DNA of 64,000 bases, taken from an uncultured bacterium. Lineage in GTDB: Bacteria; Patescibacteriota; Microgenomatia; Levybacterales; UBA12049. A program made the translations under genes and the position numbers. Below, piece by piece: positions 3,511-53,633 of the stretch. Location of the stretch: contig CAWGXL010000010.1 in assembly GCA_963826535.1 (NCBI GenBank), positions 42,814 through 106,813 on the forward strand. Reading direction: 5' to 3'. Every line of letters begins with the position of its first letter. Positions within the stretch are counted from its first letter, which is position 1. The notes beneath the pieces were generated by a model. It did no database searches and was not told where the DNA came from. It was given only the letters and a program-made list of their open reading frames with translations.

Positions 3511-3566
3511 TTTATAGTGGAGAAACATCTTCAAAGATGGTATAATATACGTGGCATAAATATAGT

Positions 3567-5870
3567 ATGGAGAAAAATTTAGCTGTTATAAAAAAGACAG
3601 CATTAATGGTTAAAGTTCCAAAAGAAGTTGAGAATTCGTATGAGAAATTTACCTCTTTTTTCAATGATCTACATAAATTCATTAAAGATAGAAAGGAATT
3701 AAGCCACAGTCAAAAGACAATAAGTATCGAACTGGTTCTTAGGGAGAATTATCTTCATTATTTTATTATTCTTGAACCGATTTTGGCGCATGTGGTAAAA
3801 AGCCTACTTTTCACACGATTTCCCGACACGGAAATTATGGATTTGGCACCTCCTGAGTTACCCAAAACAAATACTGCTAGAAGGTATAAAGAGTATAAAT
3901 TAAAACATTCAAATTATTTACCTTTAAGAATGGGATTCACTTATCAAAACGACCCCTATTTAACACTTTCTGCAGTCCTTTCCAAATTGGAGCATTTTAA
4001 TGAAGGCATAATAATTCAAATACTTATTTCTCCAGGTGATGAATCGTGGAACACAGAATTTGTACGACAGAATTTATCTCACCTCGTGGGTAGAATGGAA
4101 AGCATCAAATTATTTTTAGAGAAACCATTTATATCACGCGAGACGATTGATTATGAAACAGAAATGCAAAAGAAATTCGCTCACGGTGAAGATTTTTTCT
4201 ATACAAATATCCGAATTGCATACTATGGCCAAGACGAACTGGAGCTCCATCAAAATGTAATGCTTCTAGAAAAAGCTTTTGAAAAATTCAGAACTGGGGA
4301 AGACGGCAATATTAATGAGCTAGTGCCCCTTAAAATGCCGGAGGCAAAGATTCAAAATAATTTTACCAATCGAACTTTTTCCCCTCACAAAATGCTTCTA
4401 AACGTTAAAGAAATAGCTACACTTTACCATTTTCCAAATACTGCTACAGGTATTGAAGCAGTTGAAGAGGTAAAATCAAAAAAAATTGAGCCGCCGAAAG
4501 AGCTACCTGTCGCGAAATTCCTTACAAATCCCGAAATTTCGACTTTTGCCAGAACATGGTCAAGAGGAAACAGCCTGGAATTTGGAGTAAAAAGACTTGA
4601 TAGAGGCAAGCATCTTTACATAGTTGGTAAAACCGGAATGGGAAAAAGCGGCCTTATTGAACTTCTGACGATCTCGGATATATATCAGGATCAAGGCTTT
4701 TGCGTAATTGATCCGCACGGCGATTTGGTAAATGAGATATTGCGTTATATACCTGAGAGGAGGGTTAAGGATGTTATTTATTTTAATCCGGCGGATAGCG
4801 AGTTTCCGATTGGATTTAATCCGCTTGAATGTTTTTCGCCAGAGGATAAACATCAGGTTGTTACAGGATTTGTGTCAATATTTAAAAAGCTCTTCGCGGC
4901 AACCTGGACAAACCGACTGGAACATGTATTGCGCTTTACTGTTCTCGCACTTATTGAAGCAGGCGACGCAACTATTGTAGATATTGTAAAACTCCTGACA
5001 GATATTAATTTTCGCCAACAAGTTGTTAAAAAAATTCAGGATCCGATGGTCAAAAATTTCTGGACGCATGAATTTTCTTCCTGGAATGAGCGCTTCGATA
5101 ATGAAGCGGTTATACCGATTATCAATCAGGTCGGACAATTCTTGTCCAATGATTATATAAGAAATGTTGTAGGACAAAGAAAATCCCGCATTGACTTTTT
5201 TAAGTCAATGAATGAGGGCAAAATTATTATCATTAATCTTGCCAAGGGAAAATTGGGAGAAGAGAATGCTTCGCTTTTGGGATCAATGATGATCACCAAG
5301 ATACAGGAAGCAGCCATGGCGCGGATCGCCTTGCCGAAGAATCAAAGACGACCGTTTTATCTGTATGTTGATGAGTTTCAAAATTTTGCCACAGAATCAT
5401 TCGATGAAATTCTCTCAGAGGCGAGAAAATTTAATTTATTTTTGACTATTGCGCATCAATATATTGATCAGCTGACTGAAGCCATTCGTAAAACAGCATT
5501 TGGTAATATAGGATCAATTATTTGTTTTCGTGTCGGCTCTGAAGATGCTCATTTTTTGGGTCGTGAATTTGCTCCTTATTTCACACCGGACGATATTATA
5601 AGTCTTGACTTTAGAGAAGCCTGTGTTAAACTTTCAATTGATGGTAAAACTTCGGATCCTTTTTCAAGTTTCACAATTGAAATACCAACACCGAAAGAGA
5701 ACCATGTTGAAGAGATTATTGCTTACTCAAGACAGCAATACTCATTAACGAAAAAAGAAGTTGAAAAAGAGATGTATAAAGATTCAGACGCAATGACGCA
5801 CATTGCAGGAGAACAAAAGGTTGATTCCAGCGAAGCTGACGATACATTTGATGAACCATTAATAAACTAG
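3567..5870 (+). CDS. P-loop NTPase of the VirD4/TraG/HerA-FtsK class (coupling-protein-like ATPase, no TM segments)
   Basis: Walker A GKTGMGKSG, Walker B hhhhDEF (FYLYVDEFQNF), then RKFNLFLTIAHQYIDQL resembling the TraG/VirD4 C-terminal motif; 767 aa; its stop abuts the next ORF. Confidence 0.55.
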   Translation: MEKNLAVIKKTALMVKVPKEVENSYEKFTSFFNDLHKFIKDRKELSHSQKTISIELVLRENYLHYFIILEPILAHVVKSLLFTRFPDTEIMDLAPPELPKTNTARRYKEYKLKHSNYLPLRMGFTYQNDPYLTLSAVLSKLEHFNEGIIIQILISPGDESWNTEFVRQNLSHLVGRMESIKLFLEKPFISRETIDYETEMQKKFAHGEDFFYTNIRIAYYGQDELELHQNVMLLEKAFEKFRTGEDGNINELVPLKMPEAKIQNNFTNRTFSPHKMLLNVKEIATLYHFPNTATGIEAVEEVKSKKIEPPKELPVAKFLTNPEISTFARTWSRGNSLEFGVKRLDRGKHLYIVGKTGMGKSGLIELLTISDIYQDQGFCVIDPHGDLVNEILRYIPERRVKDVIYFNPADSEFPIGFNPLECFSPEDKHQVVTGFVSIFKKLFAATWTNRLEHVLRFTVLALIEAGDATIVDIVKLLTDINFRQQVVKKIQDPMVKNFWTHEFSSWNERFDNEAVIPIINQVGQFLSNDYIRNVVGQRKSRIDFFKSMNEGKIIIINLAKGKLGEENASLLGSMMITKIQEAAMARIALPKNQRRPFYLYVDEFQNFATESFDEILSEARKFNLFLTIAHQYIDQLTEAIRKTAFGNIGSIICFRVGSEDAHFLGREFAPYFTPDDIISLDFREACVKLSIDGKTSDPFSSFTIEIPTPKENHVEEIIAYSRQQYSLTKKEVEKEMYKDSDAMTHIAGEQKVDSSEADDTFDEPLIN

Positions 5871-5872
5871 TT

Positions 5873-6151
5873 ATGGAAAGAACATGTAAACGCTGCGGAG
5901 CCAAATTTAAGATGATCAAGCAGGAGCTTGAATTCTATAAGGAAATGGGACTCCCTCATCCTGATAATTGCCCGACATGTAGACAGGAACTCCGCGAAGC
6001 AATGCGTAATGAAAGAAAATTCTATAAATATCCCTGTGCCAAATGCGGCAAAGACATGGTAACAACCCATAACCCCGATAAAAAGTTAATCGTTTATTGC
6101 ATCCCCTGTTATACGGAGTTTCGCAACACCGTAGACCTGACAAAAGAGTAA
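5873..6151 (+). CDS. Double zinc-ribbon protein (4 x CxxC)
   Basis: CKRC...CPTC and CAKC...CIPC pairs in 92 aa; starts 3 nt after the ATPase stop and ends immediately before the first Cys-rich paralog. Confidence 0.6.
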   Translation: MERTCKRCGAKFKMIKQELEFYKEMGLPHPDNCPTCRQELREAMRNERKFYKYPCAKCGKDMVTTHNPDKKLIVYCIPCYTEFRNTVDLTKE

Positions 6152-7042
6152 ATGACCTTTCTCCAAAAATACGAGCTTCTGAAGAAATCCATTCCAGTCC
6201 CTGCTATGGCAAATGACACACAATCTATCGGTTGTGAATACTCAGATGGGATGGTTGCAAGTAAAAACTGTTTCTTCTGTGAGGGAGGCTGGCAGGAGGA
6301 TTGTATTTATGCTCATTTCTCTCCTTTTAATAATAAAGTTGTAGATAGTCTACATACGTCTAATTCGGAAAAATGTTTTATGTGTGTTAATTGCGACAAG
6401 TGTCATAGCTCTACATATTTAATTGATTGTGTTAGCTGTACTGATTGCCATTTCTCTGCCTTATTAAGCTCATGTACCGATTGCTTCGGCTGCGTTGACC
6501 TAACCCGCAAAAAATATTGTATTTTTAATAAACAATTTACTAAGGAAGAATATTTTAAAAAAGTTGAGGAATTAAAAAAAGAAAAACCGGAAAGTATTCT
6601 TAAGCAAATGTTTGAGATAAAAAAGAAAGTGCCACATCCGGCAAGTCAACAATTCAATAATGAAAATTGTCTATATGGCAATCATATGTATAATTCAAAG
6701 AATTGTTTTTGGGCTTTCAATAGTTGGACTAGCGAAGATTCTGGATACATTTTTAATTGCCCTTCAGTCGTAAATTGTTGGGATCAACATAGGGTTTCTC
6801 ATAGTGAGCGCTGCTATGAGATGGTCCAATCGCCCTATAATTATGAGTGCGCATTTCTATTTGATTGCGAAAGGTCTAAAAACTGCTTTTATAGTACAAG
6901 GCTTATAAACTGTACCGATTGTTTCGGCTGTGTGGCTTTAAAAAATAAAAAATATTGCATTTTAAATAATCAACTATCCAAAGAGCAATACGAAAAAGCA
7001 GTAATAGTGATTAAAAAAGAATTAGGCTGGCAAATATCGTGA
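6152..7042 (+). CDS. Cys-rich repeat protein, paralog 1 of 4 (unassigned family)
   Basis: About 12% Cys; N-terminus MTFLQKYELLKKSIP; repeated C-x2-C-x2-S-x2-L units; each half ends CFGCV(D/G)L..KKYCI(F/L)N.Q(F/L/Y)(T/S)KE(E/Q)Y; C-terminal IKKELGWQIS. Confidence 0.7.
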   Translation: MTFLQKYELLKKSIPVPAMANDTQSIGCEYSDGMVASKNCFFCEGGWQEDCIYAHFSPFNNKVVDSLHTSNSEKCFMCVNCDKCHSSTYLIDCVSCTDCHFSALLSSCTDCFGCVDLTRKKYCIFNKQFTKEEYFKKVEELKKEKPESILKQMFEIKKKVPHPASQQFNNENCLYGNHMYNSKNCFWAFNSWTSEDSGYIFNCPSVVNCWDQHRVSHSERCYEMVQSPYNYECAFLFDCERSKNCFYSTRLINCTDCFGCVALKNKKYCILNNQLSKEQYEKAVIVIKKELGWQIS

Positions 7043-7073
7043 TAACCCATGTTACCTGCTATAATATTGAACA

Positions 7074-7982
7074 ATGACTTTTCTTGAGAAATTCGAACTC
7101 CTGAAAAAATCAATCCCTATCCCGTCTGTAATTGCCAGCTCCTCTGTTGACTGCGATTATACTGATTTTGTCGATCGATGCAAGAATTGCTACTATTCCT
7201 TCGATGCGTATTATCTTGAAAATAATATATATACATATTATGGAGCATATAACAAAATGTTATTAGATTGTCATGGAATGGGTGAATCGGAAAAATGTTA
7301 TGAAAGCGTAGATTGCACAAAGTGCCACAGCTGTACCTATTTAATAAACTGCAATGGAAGTAGTGACTGTCATTTTTCAGCCTACTTAAACTCATGCAGT
7401 GATTGCTTCGGGTGTGTTGATTTAACTCATAAAAAATATTGCATATTTAACCGTCAATATACAAAGGAGGAATACTTCAAAAAAATTGAAGAGCTAAAAA
7501 CAGAAAATCCAAAGAATTTACTAGAGCAAATGTCAGATCTCGAACGAAAGTTGCCGCATCCTGCAACTTACCAATCCAATAGCGAAAATTGTCCATACGG
7601 TAATAATATTTATAATTCAAAGAATTGTTTTTGGTCTTTCAATACATATTATTTTGAAAACTCGGGCTATTCTTATTATGTATCATACGCAAAGAATTGT
7701 TGGGATGTCTCTGAATTTGGAGGAAACCCGGGAGTAAAAACAATTTCGGAGAGATGTTATGAGAATTTAAATACAGAGACTTGTTACGATTGCGCGTTTC
7801 TTGTGTCAAGCAAAAACTGCACAAACTGCCACTACAGTGACCAGCTAATAAACTGTTCCGACTGTTTCGGTTGCGTAGGGTTAAAAAGTAAAAAATACTG
7901 TATATTAAACAATCAACTTACAAAAGAACAATATTCACAAGCCCTAAAAGAAATCAAAAAAGAACTTGGGTGGAAGACTTAG
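7074..7982 (+). CDS. Cys-rich repeat protein, paralog 2 of 4
   Basis: Aligns along its full length with paralog 1 (MTFLEKFELLKKSIP..., CFGCVDLTHKKYCIFNRQYTKEEYFKK, ...IKKELGWKT). Confidence 0.7.
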   Translation: MTFLEKFELLKKSIPIPSVIASSSVDCDYTDFVDRCKNCYYSFDAYYLENNIYTYYGAYNKMLLDCHGMGESEKCYESVDCTKCHSCTYLINCNGSSDCHFSAYLNSCSDCFGCVDLTHKKYCIFNRQYTKEEYFKKIEELKTENPKNLLEQMSDLERKLPHPATYQSNSENCPYGNNIYNSKNCFWSFNTYYFENSGYSYYVSYAKNCWDVSEFGGNPGVKTISERCYENLNTETCYDCAFLVSSKNCTNCHYSDQLINCSDCFGCVGLKSKKYCILNNQLTKEQYSQALKEIKKELGWKT

Positions 7983-8011
7983 CAATTATTAATTTTTCTC
8001 TAAATTTAAAT

Positions 8012-8917
8012 ATGAACTTTCTTGAAAAATATGCACTCCTCAAAAAATCCATTCCAGTTCAGGCTGTTTCGGTGCGTTCATCTGTAGATTGTGAATATGC
8101 AGATATCGCCGTAAGTTGTAAGAATTGCTACTACTGCTTCGATTGTTACAAGTTAGAAGGTGGAATGTATACAAATTTCGGCTGGGGGAATAAGTTGGTG
8201 GACTGTCGTTCAGTGATAGAATCAGAAAAATGCTATCAATCTGCGGATTGCAACAAATGCCATAGCTCTACTTACCTTTTTGATTGTAATAGCAGCACAG
8301 ATTGTCATTTCTCCGCTTTTTTGAACTCTTGTGCCAATTGTTTTGGTTGTGTAGGTTTAACACATAAAAAATTTTGTATTTTGAACACTCAATATACCAA
8401 AGAAAAATATCAGGAAAAGTTGGAAGAATTAAAGAAGGAAAACCCTGATAAGCTAATTAAGCAAATGTTAGATTTGAAACAAAAGATCCCGCATCCCGCT
8501 AGTCAGCAGTTCAATTCCGAAAATTGCCCTTATGGTGACTATATGTATGATTCAAAAAATTGCTACTGGGGTTTTTTGATAAATTATTCTGAAAACTCCG
8601 GCTATATTTATGAGAGTGGTACTATGAAGAACTGCTGGGATGTCTTTTTCTCAGGTGGTAACTACAGCCAAAAAACTTTCTCAGAGCGCTGTTATGAGAA
8701 TGTTAATACTGATACTTGCTACGACTCAGTATTTCTAAAAGATAGTGAAAATTGCACGAACTGCTATTATAGTGAAAATATCTTAAACTGTTCCGACTGC
8801 TTCGGTTGTGTAGGACTAAAAAATAAAAAATACTGTGTGCTAAATAACCAACTAACCAAAGACCAATTTACCCAAGCTCAAAAAGAAATCAAGAAAGAGC
8901 TTGGATGGAGGATTTAA
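8012..8917 (+). CDS. Cys-rich repeat protein, paralog 3 of 4
   Basis: The track ORF starts at 7970, but the conserved N-terminus MNFLEKYALLKKSIP begins at ATG 8012; ends ...IKKELGWRI; overlaps/abuts neighbours. Confidence 0.65.
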   Translation: MNFLEKYALLKKSIPVQAVSVRSSVDCEYADIAVSCKNCYYCFDCYKLEGGMYTNFGWGNKLVDCRSVIESEKCYQSADCNKCHSSTYLFDCNSSTDCHFSAFLNSCANCFGCVGLTHKKFCILNTQYTKEKYQEKLEELKKENPDKLIKQMLDLKQKIPHPASQQFNSENCPYGDYMYDSKNCYWGFLINYSENSGYIYESGTMKNCWDVFFSGGNYSQKTFSERCYENVNTDTCYDSVFLKDSENCTNCYYSENILNCSDCFGCVGLKNKKYCVLNNQLTKDQFTQAQKEIKKELGWRI

Positions 8918-8921
8918 TACT

Positions 8922-9827
8922 ATGACATTTCTTGAAAAATACGAACTATTGAAAAAATCTATTCCTGTTGCCGCAGTATCAAATGATTTAAATACAGTTA
9001 ACTGTGAATACATAGACTATGTTTATCAAAGTAAAAATTGTTATTACTGCTTCGATTCAGTAGAGATTGAAGATTGTATTTATACAATAATGGCTAGGGG
9101 AAATAAACTTATAGACTGCACCTCTGTATTCGAATCAGAAAAGAGTTATATTTGTATAGATTGCACGAAGTGTTATAACTCTACATATTTATTAAAAAGT
9201 AATAATTCTACTGATTGCCACTTCTCTGCTTTTTTAAATTCATGCACCGAATGTTTCTGCTGCGTCGGACTAACTCATAAGAAATATTGCATTTTTAACC
9301 GTCAATACTCCAGGGATGAATATATAAAAAAAGTAGAAGAATTAAAAAACGAGAACCCGGAAAAGATTCTCGCCCAAATGATCGAATTAAAACAAAAAGT
9401 TCCTCATCCTGCTAGCCAACAACTTAATAGCGTTGGGTGTCCGTATGGTGATGGTATAGATAACTCAAGAAGCAGTTATTGCTCTTTTAACGTTACCAAT
9501 ATTGAAAACTCCGGCTATATTTATTTAAGTAGTAATATCAAGAATAGTTGGGATATTTATTTTACCGGTGGTACAGGTACAAAAACTTTTACAGAACGAT
9601 GTTATGAACTTGTGGATTGTGGGTTTAGTTATAATAGCGCATTTCTCTACAATTGCATAGATTGTACAAATTGTTATTACGGTTTAAGTCTTACACACTG
9701 TTCTGATTGCTTCGGTTGCGTTGGGTTATCAAAAAAGAAATACTGCATATTAAATAACCAACTAACCAAAGACCAATACAATATAGCCATAAATGAGATT
9801 AAAAAAGAGCTCGGCTGGAAATCTTAA
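8922..9827 (+). CDS. Cys-rich repeat protein, paralog 4 of 4
   Basis: The track ORF starts at TTG 8901, but the conserved N-terminus MTFLEKYELLKKSIP begins at ATG 8922, 4 nt after paralog 3's stop; ends ...IKKELGWKS. This is the most divergent copy (CFCCVGL variant). Confidence 0.65.
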   Translation: MTFLEKYELLKKSIPVAAVSNDLNTVNCEYIDYVYQSKNCYYCFDSVEIEDCIYTIMARGNKLIDCTSVFESEKSYICIDCTKCYNSTYLLKSNNSTDCHFSAFLNSCTECFCCVGLTHKKYCIFNRQYSRDEYIKKVEELKNENPEKILAQMIELKQKVPHPASQQLNSVGCPYGDGIDNSRSSYCSFNVTNIENSGYIYLSSNIKNSWDIYFTGGTGTKTFTERCYELVDCGFSYNSAFLYNCIDCTNCYYGLSLTHCSDCFGCVGLSKKKYCILNNQLTKDQYNIAINEIKKELGWKS

Positions 9828-52124: not shown

Positions 52125-53633
52125 ATGAAGAGAATAATACCCTCCACCATGGCATCTCAACACCCCGATCATGCGAACATTCCCTACTGGCACAACAAAG
52201 AATTCATCACCGCCCAACACGAACACAAAGAATGTTACCTCATGTATTCAGATTTGGGAATCCAGGAATACAAATGGGATTGGGAAGGAAAAATTGTAGA
52301 TGAATCCATTATGGAAAGATTACTAAGTCTTTATTATGATTATTTTAGAGCTAATCCGCTTGGAAAAGAAAAATTTCTCACTTTTAGATTGCCTAATCCT
52401 AAAGCTGAGACAGAATTCCGCCTGGCTCGGGCTTTCATGGGAATTCTAAGCGCTGCGTCCTTGACCAAGCAAGTCGGCTTGCACACTCCACCCCTATTTG
52501 AAGTAATTCTGCCCATGACCGAAAGCGCCGCTGAAATGATTGCGATCCAAGAGGCATTCCAGGAAATCACACAGCTAAAACACGAACTTTACCGCTTTGA
52601 AACCAATACATTAAAAAACATAGAAGTAATTCCACTCTTCGAACAAGTGTCAACCATAATTAACTCCGATCAAATACTTAAAGACTATGTAGCTATGCAT
52701 ATCCAAAAATTCAAAAAAGTACCTGCATATTTACGGCCATACGTTGCCCGTTCTGACCCGACATTAAATTCGAGCTTAGTTCCCACAGTCCTCGCGATAA
52801 AAATAGCATTATCGCGCTACAAACTATTTACCCAAGAGTCAGGAATCCCGCTATACCCAATCATTGGCTCAGCCTCACTTCCATTTCGCGGAGGACTGAC
52901 TCCGCATACTGTTAATCAATTTATTAAAGAATATCAAGGCATAAAAACCGCCTTAATTCAAAGCGCGTTCCGTTATGATTACGACAAATTAGATGTTAAG
53001 AAGGCAATAAAAACTCTAAATAATTCACTCCCGGCTGGCCTTGCTGCCGAGATAACAACGAAGGAAGAAAAAGACCTGATATCGATTATTTCTTTCTTTG
53101 AACTTCCATATAAAAAAGTTATTGAAGAAATAGCCCCCATAATCAATAAAATCGCATCATCGCTTCCCCCAAGGCGAGAAAGAGTCCAGCACACCGGCTT
53201 ATTTGGTTATTCCAGAGGCATGGGGAAAGTAACACTCCCGCGGGCGATCTCGTTTACAGGATCCCTATATTCAATCGGCATCCCTCCGGAGTTAATCGGT
53301 ACCGGACACGGAATTAAAAAAACTATAGAGGCAGGCAAAATAGATCTCTTGGAAAAATTCTATATTAATTTAAAACAAGATCTAATCACCTCAGGTAAGT
53401 TCCTCAACAAAAAATTACTAAAAACACTCGCTATTCAATATCCTATATTTAAAGATGTCATTGATGACATAAAATATATAGAAGAGTACCTCGGAACCGA
53501 ATTAGGCCCGGAAAGCCCCGAAGAAAAAGAACATTCCAAACTCACGGAAAAAATATATAAAGGCTTCACACAAGACAATATCCCCCAAGATATTCTAACC
53601 CGCGCAGCAGTTCTCCGAAAAAGCATGGGTTAG
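52125..53633 (+). CDS. ppcA: Archaeal-type phosphoenolpyruvate carboxylase (PpcA family)
   Basis: N-terminal IPSTMASQHPDHANIPYWH matches the archaeal-type PEPC start (IP..MSTQHPDN) and the ~500-aa length. Confidence 0.6.
   Translation: MKRIIPSTMASQHPDHANIPYWHNKEFITAQHEHKECYLMYSDLGIQEYKWDWEGKIVDESIMERLLSLYYDYFRANPLGKEKFLTFRLPNPKAETEFRLARAFMGILSAASLTKQVGLHTPPLFEVILPMTESAAEMIAIQEAFQEITQLKHELYRFETNTLKNIEVIPLFEQVSTIINSDQILKDYVAMHIQKFKKVPAYLRPYVARSDPTLNSSLVPTVLAIKIALSRYKLFTQESGIPLYPIIGSASLPFRGGLTPHTVNQFIKEYQGIKTALIQSAFRYDYDKLDVKKAIKTLNNSLPAGLAAEITTKEEKDLISIISFFELPYKKVIEEIAPIINKIASSLPPRRERVQHTGLFGYSRGMGKVTLPRAISFTGSLYSIGIPPELIGTGHGIKKTIEAGKIDLLEKFYINLKQDLITSGKFLNKKLLKTLAIQYPIFKDVIDDIKYIEEYLGTELGPESPEEKEHSKLTEKIYKGFTQDNIPQDILTRAAVLRKSMG

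Follow-up and report, generated by a model that had tools for sequence, protein, structure and literature searches.

A candidate Patescibacteria-wide module: a VirD4/TrwB-like ATPase encoded with zinc and cysteine-rich beta-solenoid proteins

What kind of system is encoded where the gene of a coupling-protein-like ATPase leads directly into those of a small zinc protein and four tandem cysteine-rich proteins? This arrangement is found in a 64,000-nt stretch of DNA (the window) from an uncultured bacterium of the Levybacterales (UBA12049; assembly GCA_963826535.1, contig CAWGXL010000010.1), a member of the Patescibacteria, also called candidate phyla radiation (CPR). Six tightly packed plus-strand genes, here named ATPase, Z and C1 to C4, occupy positions 3567-9827, with spacers of 2, 0, 31, 29 and 4 nt in gene order. 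An earlier note on this DNA had delimited the same compact set, and its coordinates and packing hold. We give a probability of about one in two to the reading that an undescribed cytoplasmic module, composed of the ATPase, Z and C, is Patescibacteria-wide and takes its Microgenomates form in this operon. ATPase, Z and C are encoded together across deep CPR lineages. The novelty lies in the partner family and in the complete module, neither of which matches a described system; the ATPase itself is of a known kind.

The association was examined from both sides. Seen from C, an ATPase gene was present in 22 of 80 C-family loci, counting the fetched stretch of at most 10 kb to either side; it usually abutted and had the same orientation. 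Seen from the ATPase, Z and C adjoined two of three distant homologs. In an unbiased sample of 80 metagenome ATPase loci, 24 had at least 15 kb of flank, and C lay within 10 kb in 8 of these 24. This partial signal was resolved by splitting the ATPases into classes and clades, set by architecture and a neighbour-joining tree of the ATPase domain, and proved to be concentrated in particular clades. In the window-type compact clade (739-779 aa), Z/C genes were found within ~1 kb in all 19 members, with six of six for the unbiased ones. The neighbouring short_i clade (~490 aa, devoid of the N-terminal domain DUF8128) was linked to Z/C in 9 of 13 unbiased loci. Large ATPases (>790 aa), most of which carry N-termini resembling transmembrane (TM) segments, had adjacent Z/C genes in only 1 of 34 cases, and a second compact clade in none of 8. 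Fisher tests gave p = 0.0014 for all compact against large ATPases and p = 6.6e-5 for short_i against large. The co-localisation anticipated by the earlier note is thus strongly kept across CPR, and the linked ATPases form a clade of their own. At the level of sequence comparison, the partnership of the ATPase with Z and C is well supported.

Domain fusions point the same way. Most CPR lineages have Z-C-Z as their unit, with Z and C joined in one protein of ~560 aa and up to ~10 copies in tandem (tblastn, 80 C-family loci). In Peribacteria (locus L027), for instance, the unit is such a single protein, with a zinc module at its extreme N-terminus, and the lengths recovered by profile search cluster at ~300 (C), 400-430 (Z-C), 470 (C-Z) and 550-600 aa (Z-C-Z). 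Since Z-C-Z is fused elsewhere, the window carries a split form. A further class of ATPases, short_ii, has a zf_Tbcl_2 domain at the C-terminus in 22 of 23 members, with 50.1 bits in locus L162 (Pfam cut-off 27), a connection between the ATPase and the Z module that owes nothing to gene order. Both short classes meet in L162, where the order is ATPase_ii, Z-C-Z, Z-C-Z, DUF5674, a 96-aa open reading frame (ORF) and ATPase_i. The gene set of the operon as first drawn stands, to be completed by two features not seen at that time: Z belongs with C, and the module is CPR-wide.

The ATPase was proposed to be of the VirD4/TraG/HerA class, and Pfam scores bear this out: TrwB_AAD_bind reached 46.9 bits (cut-off 20.5) and DUF87 25.5 bits (cut-off 23.2, marginal), with TraG-D_C slightly under its cut-off. 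TrwB was also the sole match in a sequence search of the PDB. The NCBIfam VirD4-like CD1115/TraD models, on the other hand, remained far under their cut-offs (46.9 vs 250, 45.3 vs 366 and 21.9 vs 647 bits). An identical public protein (P0121) carries PF26449 (DUF8128), PF10412 and PF01935, consistent with a layout in which DUF8128 covers residues ~1-330 and is followed by the ATPase domain. The Walker A motif GKTGMGKSG (residues 354-362) and the Walker B motif YLYVDEFQNF (DEFQ at 602-605), both recognized earlier, were confirmed and do not vary among 25 homologs. In all, homologs number more than 4,700, and the named ones are almost all from CPR. No TM segment was detected in the window ATPase: its N-terminus is hydrophilic, and the highest 19-residue Kyte-Doolittle mean (1.64) lies inside the ATPase domain.

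Comparison with type IV coupling proteins (T4CPs) such as TrwB, VirD4, TraD and TraG shows what is shared and what is not. All have an ATPase domain of the HerA-FtsK superfamily, and T4CPs in some systems adjoin tandem substrate genes. T4CPs, however, are anchored by an N-terminal TM segment, where the window ATPase has the ~330-aa DUF8128 domain instead; it also lacks relaxase or VirB genes nearby (among the ORFs scanned) and belongs to a clade tied to Z/C. Stand-alone genes encoding a TM-like N-terminus plus DUF8128 were observed beside a short ATPase gene at four loci (L012 3251-4669, L160 2358-3077, L150 10001-11020 and L071 1952). The predicted products suggest that the N-domain can be a separate, membrane-bound protein in some lineages.

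Relatives were also found outside CPR. The ATPase matches phrog_5156 (E 1.7e-74), which includes gp156 of Bacillus phage G and gp27.4 of SPO1. Homology extends over 90% of its length, N-domain included, with 24% identity; unlike the window ATPase, these phage proteins have no C-family genes in the phage records searched. The phage G homolog (L081, 90859-93336) adjoins a gene annotated as VirB-like. Among defence models, the ATPase matches PADLOC mad8 (56.7 bits, E 6.8e-16) and, weakly, those of HerA. In contrast to HerA-NurA systems, no nuclease was detected in the operon by Pfam and NCBIfam scans, and the recurrent neighbours of related loci likewise lack one.

ATPases of this kind have been counted before. 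A survey of Patescibacteria (Microb Genom 2025; PMC12102498) reports, in the passages bearing on this point, 5,713 VirD4-like T4CP homologs in 2,918 genomes, of which only 148 lie near virB4, and suggests that the orphan ones were maybe exapted for another function. The window-type ATPases and these orphan homologs are very probably the same protein population. The same passages name no partner of the ATPase; here a Z/C partner, fusions and a clade-specific linkage were identified.

Z was described as a double CxxC zinc protein, and its four CxxC pairs (C5/C8, C33/C36, C54/C57 and C76/C79) were confirmed, arranged as two predicted treble-clef zinc modules. Residues 2-42 correspond to a zf_Tbcl treble clef (PF13451, 33.2 bits, cut-off 24). 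Residues 48-82 are of the CxxC-x17-CxxC/zf_Tbcl_2 type, with matches to PF23477 (20.7 bits, cut-off 27) and TIGR04272 (18.8 bits) that both remain under cut-off. Small CxxC-x17-CxxC proteins of Methanosarcina mazei, which are distant relatives, bind Zn as measured by inductively coupled plasma mass spectrometry (PMC12704099). Modules of the zf_Tbcl and CxxC-x17-CxxC types are here tied to a beta-solenoid family and an ATPase. An alignment to the second finger of the CRP1 LIM domain covers residues 30-82 of Z (E 8.6e-5). A LIM domain begins with a C2HC finger that Z lacks, and we take the likeness as a weak pointer to protein binding. In PADLOC, Z gave only a marginal match to PDC-S64 (E 0.001).

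The four C genes are paralogs, as first recognized, with 52-65% mutual identity and tblastn E values of 1e-92 to 1e-131. Their Cys content had been put at ~12%; it is in fact 8.3-9.1% over the whole protein (25-27 Cys), and ~12.8% is reached only in the N-terminal beta-helix sub-domain of fused relatives. No match to the C proteins was obtained in Pfam, NCBIfam or PADLOC, in agreement with the impression that they fall in no known family. Assignment to a known family was rejected on these grounds, together with a PDB sequence-profile search whose best E value was 0.12. C1 and C2 do match phrog_15341, a family of unknown function, weakly (E 1.4e-9). None of the tests set by the earlier note (a known domain for the Cys-rich family, a plain ATPase without these neighbours, unconserved co-localisation) refutes the module.

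The C2 model predicts two beta-solenoids of 12-residue coils with a Cys ladder, and its only good structural match is the antifreeze protein of the beetle Tenebrio molitor (TmAFP, PDB 1ezg). Cys-Cys spacings in C are nearly all multiples of 3, and when the sequence is wrapped at 12 residues a Cys falls at coil position 2 in nearly all coils. Among 40 homologs, conservation falls on the inward coil positions 2, 5, 8 and 11, where Cys is frequent, and the outward positions are variable. The two halves of C are homologous to each other. An invariant CxxCxxCx8C motif closes each of them, at C108/C111/C114/C123 and at C261/C264/C267/C276 (C111 and C261 reach 95-97%), and is likely a metal site as judged by this pattern. 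Many other ladder Cys are conserved in only 30-90% of homologs and swapped for Ser, Tyr or Leu. Such frequent replacement fits packing better than obligatory metal ligation.

Likeness to TmAFP is confined to the fold. C shows the 12-residue coils, with Cys at positions 2 and 8, and the narrow beta-solenoid of TmAFP, but no sequence kinship with it: no PF02420 match was obtained at E up to 0.1, and homology to the insect antifreeze protein was rejected with an hhalign probability of 0.4%. TmAFP is secreted and has a TxT ice-binding face, whereas C has no signal peptide, and no TxT ladder appears in its coil tables. C also differs by having two solenoids per protein plus helices, and by additional Cys at positions 5 and 11 of the coil. 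If C is cytoplasmic, its Cys are more likely reduced or metal-bound, unlike those of TmAFP. A product of Campylobacter phage CPt10 (139028-139333, H24), annotated with weak insect-antifreeze repeat matches, was related marginally (E 0.03) to the Z-C-Z beta-solenoid; it may belong to the phrog_15341 family.

The family is large and widespread. No further copy of C was found elsewhere in the window, and the 494-kb source contig holds at least two additional ones (P0008 and P0024). A word-indexed search returned 973 homologs, none with a functional name, and at least 28 homologs lie on one 894-kb contig. An exhaustive profile search, with representatives taken at 50% identity, gave 3,427 of them, and for 1,125 the E value was 1e-30 or lower. 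Named records come from Microgenomates (Levy-, Beckwith- and Roizmanbacteria), Peregrinibacteria/Peribacteria, Gracilibacteria, Paceibacterota and others. Five records titled Gammaproteobacteria or Bdellovibrionales (L002, L011, L037, L049 and L070) contain typical CPR Z/C/ATPase modules, L002 being 67% identical to C2; these bins are probably mislabelled. In the open-access literature we found no description of the C family, of the Z-C-Z architecture or of their link to CPR T4CP-like ATPases.

C1 to C4 are old duplicates under purifying selection, as judged by a nonsynonymous divergence (dN) of 0.25-0.34, a saturated synonymous divergence (dS) and an omega of ~0.19 for the one estimable pair. 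Recent diversifying selection and gene conversion were rejected from the same values, the longest identical run being 27 nt. In a rough neighbour-joining tree, Microgenomates copies cluster by lineage, suggesting local expansion, and in fused lineages paralogs pair across genomes, suggesting that ancient paralogs were retained. At E 1e-3, INPHARED yielded no C apart from marginal Campylobacter phage matches, and IMG/VR yielded 4 weak matches. An origin from a phage or mobile element was rejected on account of this near absence from viral collections and of the window neighbourhood, which looks housekeeping: it includes uvrA and uvrC, detected by family scan, and genes that we take, from their translations, to be guaA (GMP synthase), prfB (release factor 2) and a transketolase gene.

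Taken together, these data suggest a working picture that may be put as follows. A dedicated clade of VirD4/TrwB-like ATPases, of hexameric type, would have lost the membrane anchor or never had one, and carries the DUF8128 N-domain. ATPase, Z and C would form a cytoplasmic complex, in which the zinc modules could dock the beta-solenoid rods to the motor or bind a ligand common to both, and the Cys could act as metal ligands, as motifs and distant analogues would have it. Driven by ATP, the motor would load the rods or their cargo, remodel them or translocate them, and would not be a canonical coupling protein of a type IV secretion system (T4SS). In a bolder version, which we consider doubtful, C and Z-C-Z would be new cytoplasmic metal-filled beta-solenoids with stacked Cys4 sites, and the anchor-less VirD4-derived motor would assemble, remodel or export these rods.

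Several points weigh against the cytoplasmic module. Within the wider ATPase family the link has exceptions: the 10 kb around the ATPase of CPR2 locus L084 are free of Z/C, and 4 of the 13 unbiased short_i loci lack Z/C. Clades were read from a quick distance tree without support values, and hydrophobicity was judged by a crude test (Kyte-Doolittle windows). Two members of the linked clade (L082 and L086) have moderately hydrophobic N-terminal stretches, and the stand-alone TM+DUF8128 genes near Parcubacteria-type loci make a membrane link possible there.

How does this module reading stand against the alternatives? The earlier note took the Cys-rich proteins for substrates or partners of the ATPase. 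Partnership is upheld by linkage and fusions; secretion is not, the products looking cytoplasmic and T4SS genes being absent from the window ORFs scanned. In the corresponding scenario, C and Z-C-Z are effectors that the VirD4-like ATPase recognises and directs to a host cell through the CPR T4SS or some other export route. In Bartonella, tandem arrays of bep effector genes are encoded beside virD4, and in the window too the ATPase is T4CP-like and its partners are encoded by a tandem expansion of paralogs whose outward-facing residues vary. The solenoid halves also fold like the secreted, disulfide-bonded TmAFP, and stand-alone TM+DUF8128 genes occur near some arrays. According to passages of the survey cited above (PMC12102498), the CPR T4SS is essential for epibiotic growth and its substrates are not known; in S. 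epibionticum, however, the T4CP is dispensable and other T4SS genes are not. The small fraction of CPR T4CPs near virB4 also argues against a secretion role. No signal peptide or TM segment was detected in any of the six products, and no T4SS genes among the window ORFs that were family-scanned; recurrent neighbours are likewise without T4SS or relaxase genes. The placement of zinc modules at the very N-terminus of fused forms also fits a cytoplasmic location. Since all six products look cytoplasmic and the window scan brought up no T4SS genes, the proposed secretion or translocation of disulfide-rich proteins is not supported. The linked ATPase clades are devoid of hydrophobic N-termini, and the large, mostly TM-like ATPases are almost never adjacent to Z/C. 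Zinc modules at both ends of the unit, one kind being fused to the ATPase, speak for a stable complex and against a transient substrate, and the paralogs are old, kept by purifying selection and not fast-evolving. We therefore regard delivery of effectors as unlikely.

Two other explanations separate the parts of the operon differently. According to the first, the genes would serve defence or conflict, with a HerA-like ATPase coupled to variable beta-solenoid sensors of phage or host molecules. This would account for the mad8 and HerA matches, for the ATPase relatives in large Bacillus phages, for the many copies of C with their variable surface positions and for a PaaX/Cas2-like domain protein near arrays in 6 loci. 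Yet no recognisable effector (nuclease, Sir2, TIR or protease) was detected in the operon or among recurrent neighbours, and in PADLOC-DB no other MADS component was matched, C matching nothing. The housekeeping neighbourhood, the near absence of C from viral contigs and the CPR-wide retention of ancient paralogs, in contrast to the patchiness typical of defence islands, make a defence role quite improbable. Alternatively, C would simply store metal or carry electrons, in the manner of iron-sulfur (Fe-S) or rubredoxin-like proteins, with no need of the ATPase, whose adjacency would reflect maturation, such as metal loading, or co-regulation. The 25-27 Cys per protein, regularly spaced and facing the solenoid core, the likeness of the invariant CxxCxxCx8C of each half to Fe-S and Zn motifs, the apparent cytoplasmic location and the Zn binding of related CxxC-x17-CxxC modules (PMC12704099) are all in its favour. 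Against it stand the many ladder Cys replaced by Ser, Tyr or Leu, and it leaves the clade-specific linkage and domain fusions of the ATPase without a reason; no Fe-S assembly or metal-transport gene recurred nearby in neighbour clustering. A metal or redox role independent of the ATPase therefore seems very improbable.

The cytoplasmic module would matter beyond this operon. A large part of bacterial diversity belongs to the Patescibacteria, whose conserved genes mostly lack an assigned function; thousands of orphan CPR VirD4-like ATPases here gain a specific, conserved partner family, whose arrays can fill tens of kilobases of a genome of <1 Mb. Structurally, too, the fold is of interest: a Cys-ladder solenoid resembling TmAFP, set between treble-clef fingers in a reducing cytoplasm. 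Were the rods metal-filled, this would be a CPR-specific machine without counterpart in studied bacteria, and could be the missing function of orphan T4CPs, maybe linked to the epibiotic lifestyle.

The features of the operon and other ORFs of the window are collected in Table 1. Matches to the promoter consensus around the operon were no more frequent than in shuffled sequence, and no plus-strand terminator-like site was found within 3567-9827. A candidate promoter and a predicted terminator-free interior are compatible with a single operon, without proving one. The GC content is not unusual.

Table 1. Positions of the operon genes, the candidate promoter and other ORFs in the window
Feature	Positions	Strand	Basis or remark
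Promoter-like site (TGGAGA, 17 nt, TG-TATAAT)	3518..3546	+	21 nt upstream of ATPase start; weak candidate
ATPase, 767 aa	3567..5870	+	Pfam, PHROG, hydropathy, neighbour-joining clade
Z, 92 aa, two predicted zinc modules	5873..6151	+	Pfam PF13451 and CxxC pairs
C1, 296 aa, 27 Cys, predicted Cys-ladder double beta-solenoid	6152..7042	+	sequence
C2, 302 aa, 26 Cys, predicted Cys-ladder double beta-solenoid	7074..7982	+	the modelled copy
C3, 301 aa, 26 Cys	8012..8917	+	ATG start at 8012 backed by alignment and public gene call
C4, 301 aa, 25 Cys	8922..9827	+	ATG start at 8922, GGAGG 6 nt upstream
Flanking ORF, 190 aa	2938-3510		no significant Pfam/NCBIfam match
Flanking ORF, 231 aa	9866-10561		no significant Pfam/NCBIfam match
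Fusion of biotin carboxylase and carboxyltransferase domains, 1,071 aa	45582-48797		acetyl-CoA carboxylase-like
adh_short+FabA fusion, 550 aa	50470-52122
Archaeal-type phosphoenolpyruvate carboxylase	52125-53633		PEPcase_2, 455 bits

The two flanking ORFs were rejected as parts of the module, as a counterpart of neither was found in any related locus. Neighbour clustering brought out candidates for additional conserved components (TrmB-type regulators, DnaJ/DnaK synteny, PaaX-like proteins and TM+DUF8128 proteins), which were rejected as such, none being in the window and none universal. A helix-turn-helix regulator of ~255 aa of the TrmB type lies at most 4 kb from Z/C arrays in 19 of 97 loci, for example in L022 (3166-3999, minus strand; Pfam TrmB 32.4 bits), and a ~180-aa protein with a PaaX central/Cas2-like domain (80.2 bits) was seen near Parcubacteria-type arrays in the 6 loci mentioned above, including L052 (6036-6593). 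In L162, a 137-aa DUF5674 protein (7948-8361, 73.3 bits) is encoded between the last Z-C-Z gene and ATPase_i.

In Parcubacteria-type loci (L156 4050-11362, L024 2818-12817 and L162 2290-12168) the module apparently lies between genes that we take, from their translations, to be dnaK and dnaJ, with dnaK directly upstream of ATPase_ii in L156 and dnaJ after ATPase_i in L024 and L162. This placement is perhaps a hint of some connection with proteostasis, perhaps mere lineage synteny. Elsewhere in the window, fatty-acid and anaplerotic genes, which are unusual in CPR genomes, are represented by the last three ORFs of Table 1.

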